Virus record (IMG/VR): IMGVR_UViG_3300045988_086665
Origin: a virus
Reading direction: 5' to 3' (one strand)
Length of the DNA stretch: 44,765 nucleotides
Under the pieces are notes generated by a model. It saw only the letters and a list, made by a program, of their open reading frames with translations. It made no database searches and had not been told where the DNA came from. Shown in pieces: positions 247-44,765 of this stretch (the stretch's first letter is position 1; each line of letters begins with the position of its first letter). The position numbers were made by a program, and so were the translations under genes.

Positions 247-278
247 TTTGGTGATATGAAAAATAATTCGTAAATTTG
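247..278 (+). promoter_or_regulatory. Bacteroidota-type promoter (late/terminase operon candidate)
   Basis: TTTG (247-250), a 20-nt spacer, then TAAATTTG (271-278). This matches the -33 TTTG / -7 TAnnTTTG consensus of Bacteroidota primary-sigma promoters. Confidence 0.55.
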
Positions 279-26541: not shown

Positions 26542-26745
26542 GTGCGAAGAACACTTTTCATTGAGAGAAAAGGGGTAGGGGATATGAGAGTTAGATTATA
26601 TATTCATTCAAACTAAGGCGTGCAGGTTATTATTATATAGAGTGTGGAAAACGTACCGAGAACGACCGAAATCGACCGAAAATAGCGGTGTTTATCATAC
26701 AAACAGCTAATAAAAGTTAAAATATTAATATCTTTCGGGAAAAGT

Positions 26746-26843
26746 TTTGGTGGAATGGAAAAATATTAATATCTTTGCATCGTGTTTAAGAGATAAACAC
26801 ATTAAACATTCAGTAACTTAAGCCCTAGGCAACACGGTAAAGC
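26746..26843 (+). promoter_or_regulatory. 98-nt promoter + leader cassette, copy 1
   Basis: TTTG (26746-26749)-N20-TATCTTTG (26770-26777), hairpin gtgtttaagagataaacac (26782-26800), box ttaaacattcag (26802-26813). The cassette is about 90 percent identical to 28358-28455. Confidence 0.7.
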
Positions 26844-26851
26844 CAAAGAAA

Positions 26852-27100
26852 ATGAAAAAGTCAAATTCAAACGTTTTAGAGTTCACAACAAAGTTCATCA
26901 ACTCAAACTTCCGCATCAAGGTATTCGGACGCACAGAGGATGGCAAGAAGATAAACACACTCGTAGGTGTAAGCGGTATCTTGAAGCTCATCGGAGCTGA
27001 ACTTTTCAACAAGTTCATCAAGCGAGCATTGAAGGCAGGTCTGGACGCTTGCCGCTGCGCACTCAGAAGAGGATTGGTAGTGACACTTTATGCTAAGTAA
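26852..27100 (+). CDS. Hypothetical small basic protein (accessory island)
   Basis: 82-aa ORF and first gene behind cassette copy 1. Confidence 0.6.
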   Translation: MKKSNSNVLEFTTKFINSNFRIKVFGRTEDGKKINTLVGVSGILKLIGAELFNKFIKRALKAGLDACRCALRRGLVVTLYAK

Positions 27101-27118
27101 TCAAGGGAGGACATAGAT

Positions 27119-27316
27119 ATGAGCGACTGGAAAGTATGGAGAGTTATCGGGTGCTACGGAAGGTATACCGTAGCACTCGTAAAACCCGAAATCAACGGAA
27201 GAGACAAGGTTGTTGAGCTCTCAAACAAGTGGTTCGGATTTTCAGAAATAAAAGAAGCCGATAAGCTTGCAGCCCAACTTAACAAGCGAGACGGATTAAA
27301 AGAACTTTATGATTAA
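27119..27316 (+). CDS. Hypothetical small protein (accessory island)
   Basis: 65-aa ORF, same operon. Confidence 0.55.
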   Translation: MSDWKVWRVIGCYGRYTVALVKPEINGRDKVVELSNKWFGFSEIKEADKLAAQLNKRDGLKELYD

Positions 27317-27321
27317 AAGAT

Positions 27322-27543
27322 ATGAAACAATACATTTTGAATGCTAAAAACAGCCTTGGGGAAGTTGACAGTCACATCGAGGACTACAGAACCAAGGAGA
27401 GAATGGAGGAAGAGTTTGCACGCATCAAGGAAGTTTACAGAAACAACCCACATGCGGAAATGCTGGAAGAAGGAGACCGACACTTCAAGGTTAAGATGGG
27501 TAGGGTGACATTCGAGTATTACATCACTGAACGAGAAATTTAA
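27322..27543 (+). CDS. Hypothetical small protein (accessory island)
   Basis: 73-aa ORF, same operon. Confidence 0.55.
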   Translation: MKQYILNAKNSLGEVDSHIEDYRTKERMEEEFARIKEVYRNNPHAEMLEEGDRHFKVKMGRVTFEYYITEREI

Positions 27544-27555
27544 ATTTGGTAAGAT

Positions 27556-28026
27556 ATGAAGGAATACGACAAGATACCAGCACAAGCGGTGGTCGAGGTA
27601 ACGACCAGCTGGGGAAGAACCTGCTTGTTAGAGATTGGGCGAGACCTCAAGGAAGGCACGGTGCTCAATGGCTATTATTATCCGGTAAGCAAGGCTTTCG
27701 ACTTTGAATGGAAGGGAGAGGGCACAATGCTGTGGATCGGGGACAACGGAAGGCTTGTAAGCCTTGGAGAAGGACAGAAGCACAAGTATATGATGCTTGG
27801 TCGTATGCTATCCGATTGCGAGTACTTCCTTCGCAACCCATACCAGCGGCACCTCTATTTCCCGAGCATCGCTAGACACTGCAAGGAAATGCGCCAGTAC
27901 TGGCTGTCGTTGAATATCAAGCCGGAGTGGTTATCTTATAAGCAGATTGGCAAGCTGGAGCACAAGATGAACAGAATGAAAACGAAGTTAGATAGACAAT
28001 TTAAAAAAGACAGATATGGAGAATAG
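27556..28026 (+). CDS. Hypothetical protein (accessory island)
   Basis: 156-aa ORF. The C-terminal half (YMMLGRMLSDCEYFLRNPYQRHLYF...PEWLSY) looks like a conserved domain that I cannot name. Confidence 0.65.
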   Translation: MKEYDKIPAQAVVEVTTSWGRTCLLEIGRDLKEGTVLNGYYYPVSKAFDFEWKGEGTMLWIGDNGRLVSLGEGQKHKYMMLGRMLSDCEYFLRNPYQRHLYFPSIARHCKEMRQYWLSLNIKPEWLSYKQIGKLEHKMNRMKTKLDRQFKKDRYGE

Positions 28027-28180
28027 AAGAAACATCAAGAGAACGAAGAAGGGTGCTGGCGCAACGGTCAAGCTAGTTGGCATACAGATAGACAACGACC
28101 TACTGCCGTACATCAACGCATTACCCAACAAGTCACGATTCATCAATGATTTGTTGAGAAAGAAATTTTTCAGTAAATAA
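28016..28180 (+). CDS. Small RHH-like protein (54 aa, below the track cutoff), paralogue of 41-235
   Basis: Translated by hand: MENRRNIKRTKKGAGATVKLVGIQIDNDLLPYINALPNKSRFINDLLRKKFFSK. It overlaps the previous ORF by 11 nt. Confidence 0.45.
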   Translation: MENRRNIKRTKKGAGATVKLVGIQIDNDLLPYINALPNKSRFINDLLRKKFFSK

Positions 28181-28212
28181 TTTGGTGGTTTCAAAGGAAA
28201 AGCGTACCTTTG
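28181..28212 (+). promoter_or_regulatory. Bacteroidota-type promoter with no ORF behind it
   Basis: TTTG (28181-28184)-N20-TACCTTTG (28205-28212). The TTTGGTGG start and the spacing match the two cassette promoters. Confidence 0.55.
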
Positions 28213-28218
28213 CATCAC

Positions 28219-28287
28219 TGAATGTTTAAAGTGGTTACCACTTATTACCCCAGCGACTCGACTTTTTCACCGCTGGGGTATTTTTTT
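28219..28287 (+). ncRNA. Candidate small RNA (about 65-70 nt): 5' seed, small hairpin, terminator hairpin
   Basis: Predicted transcript: ugaauguuuaaag, then aagugg-uua-ccacuu (28229-28243), then accccagcg-N15-cgcuggggu (28247-28279), then U7. It has no ORF. The 5' end is the reverse complement of the AAACATTCAG box. Confidence 0.4.
28247..28287 (+). terminator. Strong intrinsic terminator
   Basis: 9-bp GC-rich stem accccagcg/cgctggggt followed by ttttttt (28281-28287). Confidence 0.8.
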
Positions 28288-28357
28288 GCCCATTTTAAGC
28301 CGTAAATGTAAAATAACATTAAAATAACAATAAAATAAAAAGAAAATCGTTTAAAAA

Positions 28358-28455
28358 TTTGGTGGAACGGAAAAATATTAATATCTTTGCATCGTGTTTA
28401 TGAGATAAGCACATTAAACATTCGGTAACTTAAGCCCTACGCATCACGGTTAAGC
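28358..28455 (+). promoter_or_regulatory. 98-nt promoter + leader cassette, copy 2
   Basis: TTTG (28358-28361)-N20-TATCTTTG (28382-28389), hairpin gtgtttatgagataagcac (28394-28412), box ttaaacattcgg (28414-28425). Confidence 0.7.
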
Positions 28456-29036: not shown

Positions 29037-30203
29037 CTATTTTTTATTGTATAGCACGTAATCAATAACCCTGCGGTTTGCTTCATCTACTCTCGATAGG
29101 TCTGCATTGATGTAGGTGTCAGTTACCCGGACACCGAACGAGTGACCCAGTGCCAGCGATATTACGTCCTTTGGTATTCCAAGGTTGAAGGCGATGGATG
29201 CCCACGTATGGCGAGCGTAGTACGTAGTAAGCCCTTGGCGCACCTTTCCTAGCTTCTTATTAATCATTACCGTTGCAGAATCAACATTTTTGAAATGCTC
29301 CGAGAAACGAAGCAGCTTCTTTTCCCCCTTGTATTTCTCGATGATTCGGAGAGCTTCGGGATGAAGAAGGATGGAGTAATGCCTGCCAGTCTTCGCACGG
29401 TCGTATTCCAGTCTGCCACGGACGATATTCTCCTTTGTCAAGGCGAACAAGTCACGCACGTTGATACCAATGAGCAGGAACATAAGCTGGAACATATCGA
29501 CCAGCTCATCACCACCAGCTTCGAAGATAGAGCGGATTTCCTCAACAGACAAGTCTCGCTTTTTCGTTGTCTCAATCCGGAGGCTATACCTGCGGAAGGG
29601 GTAGTTTTTCGTTTGCTCATTATCTATCGCAAGATTGAAGACAGCAGCGACACAGAGCATCCTGCTTGTTCTGGTATTCCTAGACAAGCCTTCCTTTGCC
29701 ATAAAAGCATCGAAGGCTTCAAGCCAAGAGCGGTTAATCTCATCGTATGTAAGCAGAGCCGCTTTTTCCTTCCCAAGGAAAGCTTCAATCTTTGCCCAAG
29801 TGTACTTGTATCTATTGATCGTGTTCTTTTTTAGATTTCTCCCCTCGTAGGCGATGAAGCCATCACGAAGATGGGCGACCCTTTCCCTGGCAGGCTCGGC
29901 TTCAAGGATGATTAAGTCACGAAGCTCCCTAGCCGTAATGTCGCCACGGTAAGTATCCCTGCATTGCGCCTTCATCATCATTCTATTATAAAAATTCAGA
30001 CGGTCAAGAAGGAAGTCGTTGATAGCATCACGATCGGGACGCTTTCGCACCTTACAAGACCTTTTATCCCATTCATCTTTCTTGCAGTATTGATTGAGGG
30101 ATATGAAGGCAGTCCCACCGTGATGGTTAACGGCAAGACGGATGGAGAACGTGCCATCCTGCCTTTTTACCCTCGTGTCTAGATATAATCTCAGTGTTGC
30201 CAT
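29037..30203 (-). CDS. int: Tyrosine site-specific integrase (Bacteroidota phage/CTn type)
   Basis: 388 aa with an N-terminal SAM-like/arm-binding region. The catalytic C-terminus reads YYARHTWASIAFNLGIPKDVISLALGHS...VTDTYI (R, H-x-x-R, H, Y contexts). Confidence 0.92.
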   Translation of the reverse strand: MATLRLYLDTRVKRQDGTFSIRLAVNHHGGTAFISLNQYCKKDEWDKRSCKVRKRPDRDAINDFLLDRLNFYNRMMMKAQCRDTYRGDITARELRDLIILEAEPARERVAHLRDGFIAYEGRNLKKNTINRYKYTWAKIEAFLGKEKAALLTYDEINRSWLEAFDAFMAKEGLSRNTRTSRMLCVAAVFNLAIDNEQTKNYPFRRYSLRIETTKKRDLSVEEIRSIFEAGGDELVDMFQLMFLLIGINVRDLFALTKENIVRGRLEYDRAKTGRHYSILLHPEALRIIEKYKGEKKLLRFSEHFKNVDSATVMINKKLGKVRQGLTTYYARHTWASIAFNLGIPKDVISLALGHSFGVRVTDTYINADLSRVDEANRRVIDYVLYNKK

Positions 30204-30430
30204 ATTTCCGTGCAGTATTTATTCAGTTTATTTACAGCAGGAAGAACCGCAATTGTGCAGAGTGGTGCAGGATTGCGGCACTTCTCAGTTTCCCCAGTAT
30301 CAGAGAACCCCTTTATATACTGGGGGAAACAGTTAAGTTGTACTCAAAATCATAACGTATGCTTTAAATGGTTAAAAATTAGATACTTAATACTGTTGCT
30401 ATTTTTCCGTGCAGTTTTTATTCAGGTTTT
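30204..30430. other. Candidate attP region (direct-repeat arms around inverted-repeat core)
   Basis: tttccgtgcagtatttattcagttt (30205-30229) and tttccgtgcagtttttattcaggttt (30404-30429) flank ccgcaat-N18-attgcgg (30247-30278) and gtttccccagtat-N16-atactgggggaaac (30288-30330). The hexamer GTGCAG occurs four times. Confidence 0.35.
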
Positions 30431-30731
30431 TCACGATTTCAGACGTGAAGCCGGATGCGTAGAAGTCACCCGAACCAAGGAGCAGCCAGTATGGGTTGAC
30501 GTGATAGTCTCGTACCAGAAACTGAACCCAGGACGGACGGAAGCGACCGTAGCACTCGGCAGGCTTGTCTCGAAGGGATATGGTGTTCCAACGGTTGAGA
30601 CCGTACCGGTCCGTGATCGTCTTAAGACCTCCTATGCAGCCGTCAGCCTTCAAGCGGTCTAGGGCATCGAAGAAGCGCACGGCTATATCCACATCAGCGG
30701 ACATCAGTTTTTTATCTTCCATATTATTCAT
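30399..30731 (-). CDS. HTH DNA-binding regulator (Bacteroidota phage/CTn repressor-like)
   Basis: 110 aa. RFFDALDRLKADGCIGGLKTITDRYGLNRWNTISL...NPYWLLLGSGDFY has the HTH plus the WLL-x-G-x-G tail typical of this regulator class (from recall). Confidence 0.65.
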   Translation of the reverse strand: MNNMEDKKLMSADVDIAVRFFDALDRLKADGCIGGLKTITDRYGLNRWNTISLRDKPAECYGRFRPSWVQFLVRDYHVNPYWLLLGSGDFYASGFTSEIVKNLNKNCTEK

Positions 30732-32304: not shown

Positions 32305-32661
32305 TTATTTCTGTCCGACAATGGCAAGCAGCGTTTTAACTTGATTTTGCAGGAACTCATTCTGTTCTCGCAGCAGTTTATTCTCAGCAGCCAAGGCAGC
32401 ATCACTACCTATTGACTGGGAAACGTTGGAGCTGTTCGAACCATTGACATTTGAACCGAAGACAGCCTCTTCCATCTCGGCTGGTAGGGGAGGGGCGCAT
32501 TTATCGATGATTTCCTTTATCTTTTGAAAGAAATCTATCTTTATAGACTTGCGATTAAACTTCGCATTCAAGTTCTGCGGACTTGTTCCTAACTCCTCCG
32601 CAACAGCAGCAACGGACATTCCCGAGCGCTTTATATATTGTTTTAGTTCTTCTCCGTTCAT
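32305..32661 (-). CDS. CI-like repressor (XRE-family HTH + leucine-zipper-like C-terminus)
   Basis: 118 aa. HTH: SGMSVAAVAEELGTSPQNLNAKFNRKS. C-terminal coiled coil: AAENKLLREQNEFLQNQVKTLLAIV. It is oriented divergently from the early operon. Confidence 0.75.
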   Translation of the reverse strand: MNGEELKQYIKRSGMSVAAVAEELGTSPQNLNAKFNRKSIKIDFFQKIKEIIDKCAPPLPAEMEEAVFGSNVNGSNSSNVSQSIGSDAALAAENKLLREQNEFLQNQVKTLLAIVGQK

Positions 32662-32714
32662 ATTAAAACAAAATTAAATAAAATTAAATTAATATTAAAA
32701 TCACTACAAAATGT

Positions 32715-32745
32715 TTTGTAATCTAAAATATTTGTTTTATTTTTG
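32715..32745 (+). promoter_or_regulatory. Early (rightward) promoter candidate
   Basis: TTTG (32715-32718)-N19-TATTTTTG (32738-32745). The -33 element lies inside the inverted repeat tacaaaa-tg-ttttgta (32705-32720). Confidence 0.5.
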
Positions 32746-33060: not shown

Positions 33061-33087
33061 GTAGAATCATTTAAACATTCAGAGCGT

Positions 33088-33180
33088 ATGAAGAAGTTCA
33101 TCGATATTGTTACAAGTGACGAGTTCTTATCAGTGGCATTTGCTGCCATAGTATCAATTTTAGTATTTTGGAGGGCATAG
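33088..33180 (+). CDS. Possible 30-aa hydrophobic peptide (below the track cutoff)
   Basis: Translated by hand: MKKFIDIVTSDEFLSVAFAAIVSILVFWRA. The ATG is 5 nt after an AAACATTCAG box. Confidence 0.25.
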   Translation: MKKFIDIVTSDEFLSVAFAAIVSILVFWRA

Positions 33181-35148: not shown

Positions 35149-35258
35149 GCCATTTTATTATAACGTTAAGCCCGAACCGCCACGGTGCAACCTATGGGGT
35201 GGGGTCCCATCGAGACAAAGGGAAGCCGTGGCAACTTTTTAAACATTCAGTAAATCAA

Positions 35259-35564
35259 ATGAAGAAACAGAACGAAACAGACAATCAGAGACACGAGAGC
35301 ACCATCGACAAGTACTTCGATAGAACCGCAGACGGTTACAAGGCATGGTGCGAGGGGAACGAGGAAGACAGAAACTTTTTGCAGATAGCAGTTGAGGCGA
35401 CTGGGGATGCGGACGAAGAAGAAGACCAAAGTTACGATTTCCATATTGCTTACTCCGGCAAGAGCAATGTCCTCGCAGATGGAATTTTCCAAGATATGAA
35501 AAGGGATGAATTCATTCGCCAGCTCATCATCGAAGCAGCAAGAAGATTCTTAATGGATAAATAA
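35259..35564 (+). CDS. Hypothetical acidic protein
   Basis: Start placed at ATG 35259 (MKKQNETDN...), 7 nt after an AAACATTCAGT box. The track ORF starts at 35199 inside a structured intergenic segment. Confidence 0.55.
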   Translation: MKKQNETDNQRHESTIDKYFDRTADGYKAWCEGNEEDRNFLQIAVEATGDADEEEDQSYDFHIAYSGKSNVLADGIFQDMKRDEFIRQLIIEAARRFLMDK

Positions 35565-35578
35565 AAACATTCAAGGCA

Positions 35579-39520: not shown

Positions 39521-39565
39521 CAGACAAAAGAAACAAGAGTAACAAACAATAAAAACATTCAGATT

Positions 39566-41580: not shown

Positions 41581-41704
41581 TAAGACTCCGCAACCCGAAC
41601 AACTACCCACAGACGCAGAGATAACGGCTTAGAACGAAAATTTCAAGAAAATAACAAAAAAAGAAAATAAAAAATAAAACAAAAGTAAAACAAAAGAAAA
41701 CGAG

Positions 41705-42247
41705 ATGGAAAAAGGAACAGTTATAATCGGAATCGACCCCGACATCAAGGAAAGCGGTGTCGGAGCCGTATTTGACGATAGAAAATTCTTAGCCTACAAG
41801 ATGAACTTCCCGGCTCTGATTGACTACTTGAAGGCAATGAACGAGAGCTGCAAGAAGATTAAGGTCGTTATTGAAGGCGGCTGGCTCAACAAGAGCAACT
41901 GGCACGTACTAGGCAGATTTATGTCGGCAGTCAAGGCAGCAGCAATCGGACGCTCAACCGGGATGAACCATCAGACCGGGATCCTTATCGTAGAATGCTG
42001 CGAGCATTACAATATCCCATACGAGATAATCAAGCCGCTGAAGAAGTGCTGGAAAGGCAAGGACGGAAAAATAACACAAGACGAAATCGCCTACTTCATC
42101 AGCTCAGACGGAAAGCTCCCGAGAATGAACCAAGACCAGAGAGACGCACTTCTCCTCGCCTGGGTGTGCGCAGGATACCCGGTCAAGGTCAAGCCAAAGA
42201 AACAAGAAACAACCCTTCAGAAGACCATCAGAGCCTTTGATGGATAA
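41705..42247 (+). CDS. RuvC-fold Holliday-junction resolvase (putative)
   Basis: 180 aa with IIGIDPD (first catalytic Asp), VVIEGGW (Glu) and QDQRDALLLAW (C-terminal Asp) in RuvC-like order and spacing. Confidence 0.6.
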   Translation: MEKGTVIIGIDPDIKESGVGAVFDDRKFLAYKMNFPALIDYLKAMNESCKKIKVVIEGGWLNKSNWHVLGRFMSAVKAAAIGRSTGMNHQTGILIVECCEHYNIPYEIIKPLKKCWKGKDGKITQDEIAYFISSDGKLPRMNQDQRDALLLAWVCAGYPVKVKPKKQETTLQKTIRAFDG

Positions 42248-44646: not shown

Positions 44647-44765
44647 AAATAACCTCCAAGGGAGCGGAAACGAAAAAGGCAGGAGTTTAACCCCTGCCCA
44701 TCGCTTTGAGAATACACTGGTTGATGAAGTCGCTGCGGTCTTTCTTTTCGACTCCTTCCAAGATG
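44647..44765. repeat. Terminal direct repeat, copy 2 (identical to 1-119)
   Basis: Same 119 nt as the window start. It contains a truncated second copy of the 3' part of the 41-235 gene. Confidence 0.95.

Follow-up and report, generated by a model that had tools for sequence, protein, structure and literature searches.

Introduction

The c4 RNA of P1 and P7, the CI RNA of P4, sar of P22 and OOP of lambda are small antisense RNAs which act on several short complementary stretches of phage transcripts, ribosome-binding regions among them, and are linked to lysogeny and immunity. c4 and CI are processed from a transcript that also carries their targets, CI acts by premature termination, and the hosts are Proteobacteria. 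Here we describe a candidate of this kind in the IMG/VR record IMGVR_UViG_3300045988_086665, a temperate phage of Segatella copri; the whole stretch of 44,765 nucleotides (nt) that was analysed is called the window. The cassette at positions 28174–28287 has the features of a gene for a phage-encoded, trans-acting antisense small RNA (sRNA) that would block translation initiation of genes marked by a short box. Judging from sequence features and their conservation, we give this reading a probability of roughly 55%. In contrast to c4 and CI, the candidate has a separate promoter, is located at the 3’ end of an operon, and its main targets lie in another operon 5–11 kb away; action is predicted at four or more start sites, the host belongs to the Bacteroidota, and Rfam homology is absent. 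We found no phage-encoded sRNA of Bacteroidota in the literature.

The T4 RegA protein is a translational repressor that binds a degenerate AU-rich site at the initiation regions of several early mRNAs. The candidate resembles it in that one trans-acting factor would govern several early start sites, but it is an RNA with exact complementarity. Vibrio prophages reportedly encode a trans-acting sRNA as well, VpdS. DicF, svsR and the Pas sRNAs of enterobacterial and vibrio prophages also lie in prophage accessory regions, are seed-based and in some cases limit other phages (PMC5069750, PMC12803456). They differ in being Hfq-dependent and in acting mostly on host mRNAs, whereas here the predicted targets are the phage’s own early genes with a dedicated box.

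Among Bacteroidota, GibS of B. thetaiotaomicron pairs through an unstructured 5’ seed with translation-initiation regions (PMC7366714). GibS and other trans-acting sRNAs of this phylum share with the candidate an own promoter of the sigma-ABfr type, an intrinsic terminator, a conserved unstructured 5’ seed and a host without Hfq (PMC7366714). GibS differs by being chromosomal and longer, by regulating host metabolic genes and by its imperfect extended pairing, whereas the candidate is phage-borne, only about 70 nt long and equipped with a perfect seed of 10–14 nt, all of its predicted targets being in the phage genome. There is no sequence similarity between the two, and the candidate has no Rfam match. 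According to a study by differential sequencing of RNA (dRNA-seq), S. copri is without Hfq, ProQ and CsrA, which fits a long perfect seed.

The box has a parallel in the start-associated sequences (SAS) of cluster K mycobacteriophages, asymmetric motifs of 10–13 nt found 3–9 nt before the ATGs of some non-structural genes (PMC3203893; PMC11373665; PMC12699233). SAS are invariant across relatives with differing downstream genes, and some copies come with a promoter and an inverted repeat (ESAS). The 13-bp consensus GGGATAGGAGCCC contains a Shine-Dalgarno core and is present in 13–19 copies per genome; each K1 genome has a single SAS in reverse orientation, located away from gene starts (PMC3203893). 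SAS have no known trans factor, and papers from 2024–2025 still call the function unknown (PMC11373665; PMC12699233). The boxes described here are likewise asymmetric, start-proximal at non-structural genes, of one orientation and kept whatever gene follows, and their leaders with promoter, hairpin and box resemble ESAS. Unlike SAS, the box (TTT)AAACATTCAG(T) has no core similar to a Shine-Dalgarno sequence, and the host is not an actinobacterium; with sequence and host both different, the likeness does not make the box a member of the SAS family. Unlike that of the known SAS, the copy in opposite orientation is enclosed in an evident cassette of promoter and terminator, and an RNA is thereby suggested as the trans factor.

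Architecture of the cassette

The cassette begins immediately 3’ of an open reading frame (ORF) of 54 amino acids (aa) and is composed of the following parts:

28174–28188, + strand: −33 promoter element (AAATAATTTGGTGG), right behind the stop codon that ends the 54-aa ORF
28205–28214, + strand: −7 promoter box TACCTTTGCA
28217–28287, + strand: predicted small RNA of about 65–71 nt; start at 28217 (+/− 3) from promoter geometry
28217–28230, + strand: 5’ seed ACUGAAUGUUUAAA (anti-box), with the core CUGAAUGUUU at 28218–28227
28229–28243, + strand: hairpin 1, AAGUGG-UUA-CCACUU
28246–28287, + strand: intrinsic terminator, 10-bp stem UACCCCAGCG/CGCUGGGGUA, 15-nt loop, U5–U8 tail

The promoter reads TTTG (28181–28184), N20 and TACCTTTG (28205–28212). 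TTTG-N20-TAnnTTTG is present five times in the genome (at 247, 22957, 26746, 28181 and 28358), always on the + strand, where 0.12 occurrences are expected, and the copies at 26746, 28181 and 28358 have the extended form AATTTGGTGG...TAnCTTTGCATC in common. The −33 element at 28174 belongs to a repeat family whose other copies are found at the promoters at 240, 26739 and 28351. The S. copri consensus determined by dRNA-seq is AAAnnTTTGG for the −33 and TAnnTTT(G/C)A for the −7 element, and the promoter at 28181 agrees with both.

RNAfold leaves nt 1–12 of 28217–28287 unpaired, followed by the 6-bp hairpin, the 10-bp GC-rich hairpin and U7. The fold has a ΔG of −22.5 kcal/mol (z −5.1), and none of 200 shuffled sequences folded equally well. 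The seed is single-stranded in the minimum free energy fold as well as in the consensus fold, and the predicted 3’ end falls within the U-run. Seven of the 10 bp in the terminator stem are G-C pairs. A simple terminator scanner overlooked this terminator, the loop of which measures 15 nt.

A first-pass annotation, made from the sequence of the window, had proposed a promoter-seed-hairpin-terminator arrangement at 28181–28287. On re-reading, all of its coordinates and sequences were confirmed, and the layout of a 5’ seed plus an intrinsic terminator holds: the seed is unpaired, the stems are conserved and the terminator has a U-run. The terminator stem, given there as 9 bp, comprises 10 bp (28246–28255/28271–28280). 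A search of the whole window against Rfam returned no match at gathering thresholds. Under relaxed settings sub-threshold matches to Spot 42, NsiR1 and anti-hemB appeared (E 0.25–0.7); these reflect terminator shape alone, and membership in a known RNA family was rejected.

Conservation of the cassette in relatives

The cassette was detected in 66 of 80 loci in a first set and in 57 of 75 in a second; the other loci were mostly incomplete contigs, and pattern matching missed one locus (L267) that has the cassette with a 7-nt insertion. An alignment query aimed at divergent lineages found 347 relatives of an 82-aa protein encoded nearby, and the 80 of them that were retrieved all belonged to the close family with the same seed. 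Every related contig that is long enough carries the cassette, giving 127 copies with 40 distinct sequences. Nucleotide diversity (pi) was computed across 64 genomes:

Third codon positions, flanking LPD11 gene: 0.12
Third codon positions, 54-aa ORF: 0.13
28181–28188, −33 segment TTTGGTGG: 0.05
−7 box: 0.003
Seed: 0.005
Hairpin 1 arms: 0–0.01
Hairpin 1 loop: 0.25
Terminator arms: 0.015–0.05
13 nt 3’ of the T-run: 0.50 (hypervariable)

The −7 box ranks as the most conserved segment of the cassette, and together with the seed and the stems it is about 25-fold less variable than synonymous sites of the neighboring genes. The conserved block extends from the −33 element to the U-run, with variation sitting in the loops: the loop of hairpin 1 occurs in at least six versions (TTA/TCT/TTC/TCC/TAT/TCA), and both the seed/hairpin junction and the terminator loop admit indels of 1 nt and 7 nt. 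The consensus fold is kept across 24 distinct cassette variants, and in one lineage (L266/L006) a C-G pair of the terminator stem has become A-U by compensatory change. The cassette also persists where the number of upstream genes differs or where the operon at 28358 is missing, as in L098 and L099. Judged by its sequence, this is the pattern expected for a small structured RNA gene and not for a coding region or neutral DNA. The comparison of relatives demonstrates purifying selection on promoter, seed and stems of the cassette as well as on the boxes described below.

The same alignments establish that the cassette is non-coding. According to the first-pass annotation it contains no ORF, which needs correction in that ATG 28222 opens a frame of 27 codons on the + strand. 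This frame was rejected as a gene, since it continues beyond the terminator, reaching the hypervariable spacer, and since indels that shift the frame interrupt it in relatives. On the − strand, the order of hairpin, box, 2 nt and ATG resembles that at the other box sites, and the inverted box could therefore be read as the start-associated box of a gene running from 28215 downward, a 75-aa ORF antisense to the 54-aa ORF. In relatives this ORF is anywhere from 15 to more than 200 aa long, 5 of 67 sequences lack its ATG, and the variable sites show no third-position excess (5/6/3). A − strand TAnnTTTG is absent between 28230 and 29040, and an independent gene caller annotates the + strand ORF only. 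Given the erratic length, the lost ATG and the lack of a codon signal, promoter box and gene call, the 75-aa ORF was rejected, and we regard a − strand gene as extremely improbable.

The box complementary to the seed

The unpaired 5’ end of the predicted RNA is the exact reverse complement of a box, AAACATTCAG, that recurs in front of phage genes. The sites and the duplicated leader module that holds two of them are:

26802–26814, + strand: box situated 37 nt ahead of the ATG of the 26852 operon (82-aa phrog_32997 gene), within its leader and about 20 nt past the predicted transcript start
28414–28426, + strand: box TTAAACATTCGGT (one G-U), 38 nt before the ATG of the 28465 gene and within its leader
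33070–33082, + strand: box with 5 nt to ATG 33088, the start of a 30-aa hydrophobic peptide, and located just 3’ of the gene in cro position of the early operon
35238–35251, + strand: box 7 nt before ATG 35259 (101-aa acidic protein)
35565–35573, + strand: box of 9 nt, 5 nt before ATG 35579 (YqaJ/RecE-like exonuclease)
39553–39562, + strand: box 3 nt before ATG 39566 (336-aa protein)
26741–26843, + strand: leader module of promoter, 5’ hairpin and box; second copy at 28353–28455, 91% identical

Exact AAACATTCAG is found five times, four times on the + strand and once on the − strand, the latter being the seed; 0.17 occurrences are expected and none of 100 shuffled sequences reached five. The shorter AAACATTCR is found six times on the + strand and once, again as the seed, on the − strand, so that two near-copies join the four exact ones to give six + strand boxes. 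It is the sole 9-mer in this genome that recurs within 20 nt upstream of ORFs starting with ATG. All six boxes are in mRNA sense, and the lone antisense copy lies at the predicted +1 of a promoter. The six complementarities listed in the first-pass annotation are all as claimed there, and its statement that the box recurs above chance is borne out by these counts. The match at 35565, put at 9 nt, is correct for the window, and most relatives have the full 10-nt AAACATTCAG at this site. We searched for a promoter near the four internal boxes and found none.

The 26802 box is preceded by a 7-bp 5’ hairpin, and the leader segment 26787–26814 is complementary to 28217–28244 at 24 of 28 nt. The 28414 box lies inside the 103-nt direct repeat that forms the second module. 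The promoter of the cassette is thus a direct repeat of its two neighboring promoters and the transcribed part an inverted repeat (24/28) of their leader, which, as far as the sequence can tell, gives a simple origin for an antisense regulator.

The same complementarity could be used without an independent sRNA. The anti-box would then be part of the 3’ untranslated region (3’ UTR) of the mRNA from the 26746–28287 operon and would pair with the box in the 5’ leader of the same transcript, affecting stability or translation, or would be released as a processed 3’ UTR fragment, with the promoter-like motif contributing little. The terminator at 28246–28287 necessarily ends the upstream operon, and leader box and anti-box are then on one transcript. 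What this explanation leaves unaccounted for is the conservation of the −7 box (pi 0.003 versus 0.12–0.13 at synonymous sites), the exact consensus −33/−7 geometry of a motif that would go unused, and the four boxes in a distant early operon. We therefore consider it rather improbable.

Box conservation was assessed in the 16–19 relatives that cover the early operon, one of which encodes a neighboring protein of only 53% identity. The AAACATTCAG core has a pi of 0 at all four early start sites (33070: 18/18; 35238: 16/16; 39553: 17/17; 35565: in 19 relatives), while the 25 nt upstream range from 0.2 to 0.6. The 35238 box is retained where a different gene comes next (L001/L088), and the 39553 box is doubled along with an inserted mini-ORF in L089 and L097. 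In L015 the leader of the 82-aa gene is replaced by another one with two boxes, the second of which lies 2 nt from the ATG. Since the box is kept despite such replacement of genes and leaders, it appears to be selected in its own right and tied to start codons.

The boxes in L001/L088, L015 and L089/L097 are situated at junctions of differing gene content, and the phage encodes a YqaJ-type exonuclease. One may thus think of short linkers at module boundaries, maintained by recombination-driven mosaicism, with the inverted copy as a recombination scar. A length of 10–13 nt is very short for homology-driven exchange, and such linkers do not predict a fixed distance of 2–8 nt to the ATG, strand specificity or a constrained cassette, which makes this origin very unlikely.

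More weight is due to the possibility that a protein or the ribosome recognizes the box as a start-associated element, similar to a RegA-type operator or enhancer or to an ops- or nut-like site; the inverted copy would then be a DNA operator at the +1 of the 28181 promoter or a by-product of an inverted leader duplication, and no RNA would pair with another. The same 10-nt core everywhere, at a fixed 2–8 nt from ATGs, is what motifs bound by a factor typically show. In lambda, nutR occupies the place of the 33070 box, just 3’ of the cro-position gene. SAS of cluster K mycobacteriophages have been suspected to be translation signals (PMC3203893). A recognition element does not explain why an invariant inverted copy is placed at an unpaired 5’ end between promoter and terminator, nor why the stems of the hairpin that comes next are conserved and its loop is free to vary. 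The operator version in particular is at odds with the lack of a promoter near the four internal boxes, and with an asymmetric box whose six leader copies are all in sense orientation. We judge a recognition element unlikely, though worth keeping in mind.

A scan of IMG/VR with the pattern AAAACATTCAGNNNATG gave mostly chance single matches, and in the Bacteroidales isolates PDS1 and BKO1-3, which share only the 82-aa gene, no convincing analogous start-associated motif was found. No complementarity was seen between the box and the 3’ tail of 16S rRNA, the comparison being with the general tail sequence of Bacteroidota.

Two other elements are located next to boxes. A conserved structured element at 35181–35232 (context 35150–35262), GCCACGGUG...CCUAUGGGGUGGGGUCCCAU...GGGAAGCCGUGGC, lies upstream of the 35238 box. 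RNAalifold on six relatives gave 16 pairs, six of them with compensatory double changes (GCCACGG/CCGUGGC versus GCCGCAG/CUGCGGC); there is no Rfam match for this element, and AAC-U6 comes next in the window, the U-run not being conserved. Attenuation, processing or the binding of a protein are possible roles. A second motif, TTAAGCCC-N7/8-CACGG, follows the box in both leaders (26817–26838 and 28429–28450) and opens the structured element (35166–35187).

Predicted pairing of seed and box

Duplex energies were computed for the first 16 nt of the predicted RNA. The boxes at 35238 (−16.8 kcal/mol), 26802 (−16.0), 28414 (−15.3) and 33070 (−15.1) are the strongest non-self sites genome-wide on both strands, followed by 39553 (−12.2) and 35565 (−9.5). 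In local folds the boxes are mostly unpaired, with a mean unpaired probability of 0.48–0.87.

Several observations weigh against a trans-acting antisense RNA. The duplexes at 39553 and 35565 are no stronger than those at the best chance sites in coding DNA, and these two boxes stand out solely because they share the motif and its placement. Neither the seed nor the boxes vary in about 130 relatives, so that the case for pairing is one of co-conservation without covariation; the lone seed variant (U3 to C in L066) has no matching change in the one leader box available from that contig. Frozen seed and boxes are what would be expected if one seed has to match six sites. That all targets share one 10-nt core would be just as compatible with recognition by a protein or the ribosome. 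The two leader boxes, 37–38 nt upstream, are too far from the ATG for direct occlusion. Because the terminator serves the upstream operon, part of its conservation needs no sRNA. Finally, the S. copri dRNA-seq paper mentions no phage RNAs, and the seed string is absent from its supplements, which list sRNA coordinates without sequence. A look-up of contigs by exact protein sequence gave the same metagenome contig of 44.8 kb alone and no transcript-like one.

Proposed mechanism

In the mechanism we propose for the sRNA, host sigma-A polymerase would transcribe an RNA of about 70 nt from the consensus −33/−7 promoter, which would end at its own intrinsic terminator. Its first 10–14 nt, (A)CUGAAUGUUU(AAA), would stay unpaired and base-pair with the box (UUU)AAACAUUCAG(U). 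The predicted targets are four genes of the early operon, encoding the 30-aa membrane-type peptide, the 101-aa acidic protein, the YqaJ-type exonuclease and the 336-aa protein, and further the leaders of the accessory operons on either side of the RNA gene, in which the box lies about 20 nt in. At the four internal sites the duplex would span about −21 to −4. This lies inside the region occupied by the 30S subunit, and the expected effect is therefore a block of translation initiation. At the two leader sites an effect via mRNA stability or structure would be more likely. The occlusion of initiation regions that the first-pass annotation had suggested thus fits four of the six sites. Its view of a trans-acting sRNA agrees with the architecture and the conservation, from which we infer production of the RNA, its exact 5’ end, pairing in vivo, repression as the direction of regulation, and timing.

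The cassette sits near the end of the prophage that carries the integrase, and the accessory genes around it have promoters of host type. Its most likely role would therefore be to keep leaky expression of early genes low in lysogens and to act in trans on related phages that superinfect them; a shut-off of early translation late in infection is an alternative. A type I toxin-antitoxin system was considered for the 30-aa hydrophobic ORF at 33088 and rejected, since this is one of six sites and lies 4.9 kb from the RNA gene, not adjacent to it.

Taken further, and argued by analogy, a prophage RNA of about 70 nt from the integrase-proximal accessory region that restrains marked early genes, among them the recombination exonuclease and the small membrane peptide, might constitute an RNA regulon, adding an RNA layer to lysogeny maintenance and superinfection immunity, and might point to the missing trans factor of start-associated sequences in general. 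We put this forward tentatively and hold it to be rather doubtful in this broad form. Phage Anaya (JF704106, L300) contains 16 forward copies of SAS and one reverse copy (L300 39871–39883; 59870–59882 in the Anaya record), which lies 3’ of an intrinsic terminator in an ORF-free gap of 385 nt between gp96 and gp97 (L300 39683–40067). The + strand sequence of this reverse copy, GGCCTCCTATCCC, is both anti-SAS and anti-Shine-Dalgarno. By analogy this layout appears the same in principle as that of the anti-box; we treat it as a lead and not as a result.

S. copri is one of the most abundant bacteria of the human gut, and the prophage family is very common and also present in cultured strains. Little is understood of post-transcriptional control in Bacteroidota. 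Initiation there mostly does not depend on Shine-Dalgarno pairing, and Hfq is absent. If the antisense reading is true, the phage would be a compact case of tagging an own subset of genes with a 10-nt mark read by a single antisense RNA. It would also provide a testable hypothesis for the start-associated sequences of mycobacteriophages, unexplained since 2011, and a portable seed/box pair for synthetic translational control in Bacteroidota.

Genome context

The window represents a complete, circularly assembled genome of about 44.6 kb, in which positions 1–119 are identical to 44647–44765. Structural and lysis genes occupy the + strand up to about 26.5 kb, and the accessory region that contains the cassette lies 3’ of the lysis genes; accessory genes carry host-type promoters. 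On the opposite strand are:

29037–30203, − strand: tyrosine integrase
32305–32661, − strand: repressor-like gene, opposing the rightward early operon

Among the products of the rightward early operon are the exonuclease of YqaJ/RecE type (35579) and a replication protein that resembles DnaD (36709). Four S. copri genomes contain integrated close relatives, including S. copri HDE04 (NZ_CP152346.1), with the prophage at about 1.90–1.92 Mb; strains H-2632 and HF1825 are further candidate lysogens. Homology to these prophages stops at about window position 30355, which places the cassette about 2 kb inside the integrase-proximal end in the lysogen. No tRNA was found within the window or beside the integrated prophages that would indicate tRNA-linked integration. 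A 41-nt direct repeat (30195–30235 and 30394–30434, 85% identical) flanks the end of prophage homology, and its copies are probably arm-type sites of the integrase around attP. Among 50,697 GenBank phage records none contained DNA similar to the window.

The 82-aa protein (26852–27100) is encoded at the head of the box-bearing operon and has relatives on 347 IMG/VR contigs; the neighboring gene with an LPD11 domain is present on 121. At 44–55% identity the 82-aa protein is also found in phage isolates of Bacteroides, Parabacteroides, Alistipes, Elizabethkingia and Croceibacter, namely PDS1, BKO1-3, PD691P6, AS73P1 and Croceibacter P2559S, and is thus conserved across siphophages of Bacteroidota. 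In BKO1-3 and PDS1, the gene maps of which were examined, the gene is likewise the first one after the lysis module. The 54-aa ORF upstream of the cassette had been labelled RHH, which could not be verified: the ORF has no Pfam or PHROG match, and a single-sequence AlphaFold model is of low confidence (predicted local distance difference test score 65) with only two C-terminal helices.

Further elements of the genome

About 10 nt past a full consensus promoter at 247–278 (+ strand) lies a GC-rich hairpin of 10 bp (about 295–322), the loop of which, GGTTCGAG, is T-loop-like. The hairpin is located well before the first ORF (566), and a − strand −7 box at 488 faces the promoter. A 47-nt imperfect inverted repeat (242–288/471–517) connects the + strand promoter region and the − strand −7 box. 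The region 240–520 may represent a second non-coding RNA or a control region with convergent promoters.

A-rich tracts with a periodicity of 11 nt (AAAATAACA-type units) are located upstream of promoters at 28299–28357, 32664–32722 and 41637–41712. These sites include the gap between the terminator of the predicted sRNA and the 28358 promoter as well as the divergent promoter region of the repressor-like gene and the early operon. The tracts look like phased A-tracts or UP-like bent DNA. Throughout the genome, the coding strand is strongly enriched in the 9-mers GACATCAAG (13 copies) and CATCAAGGA (12 copies), which probably reflects a codon and dipeptide bias (Asp-Ile-Lys, Ile-Lys-Glu/Asp).

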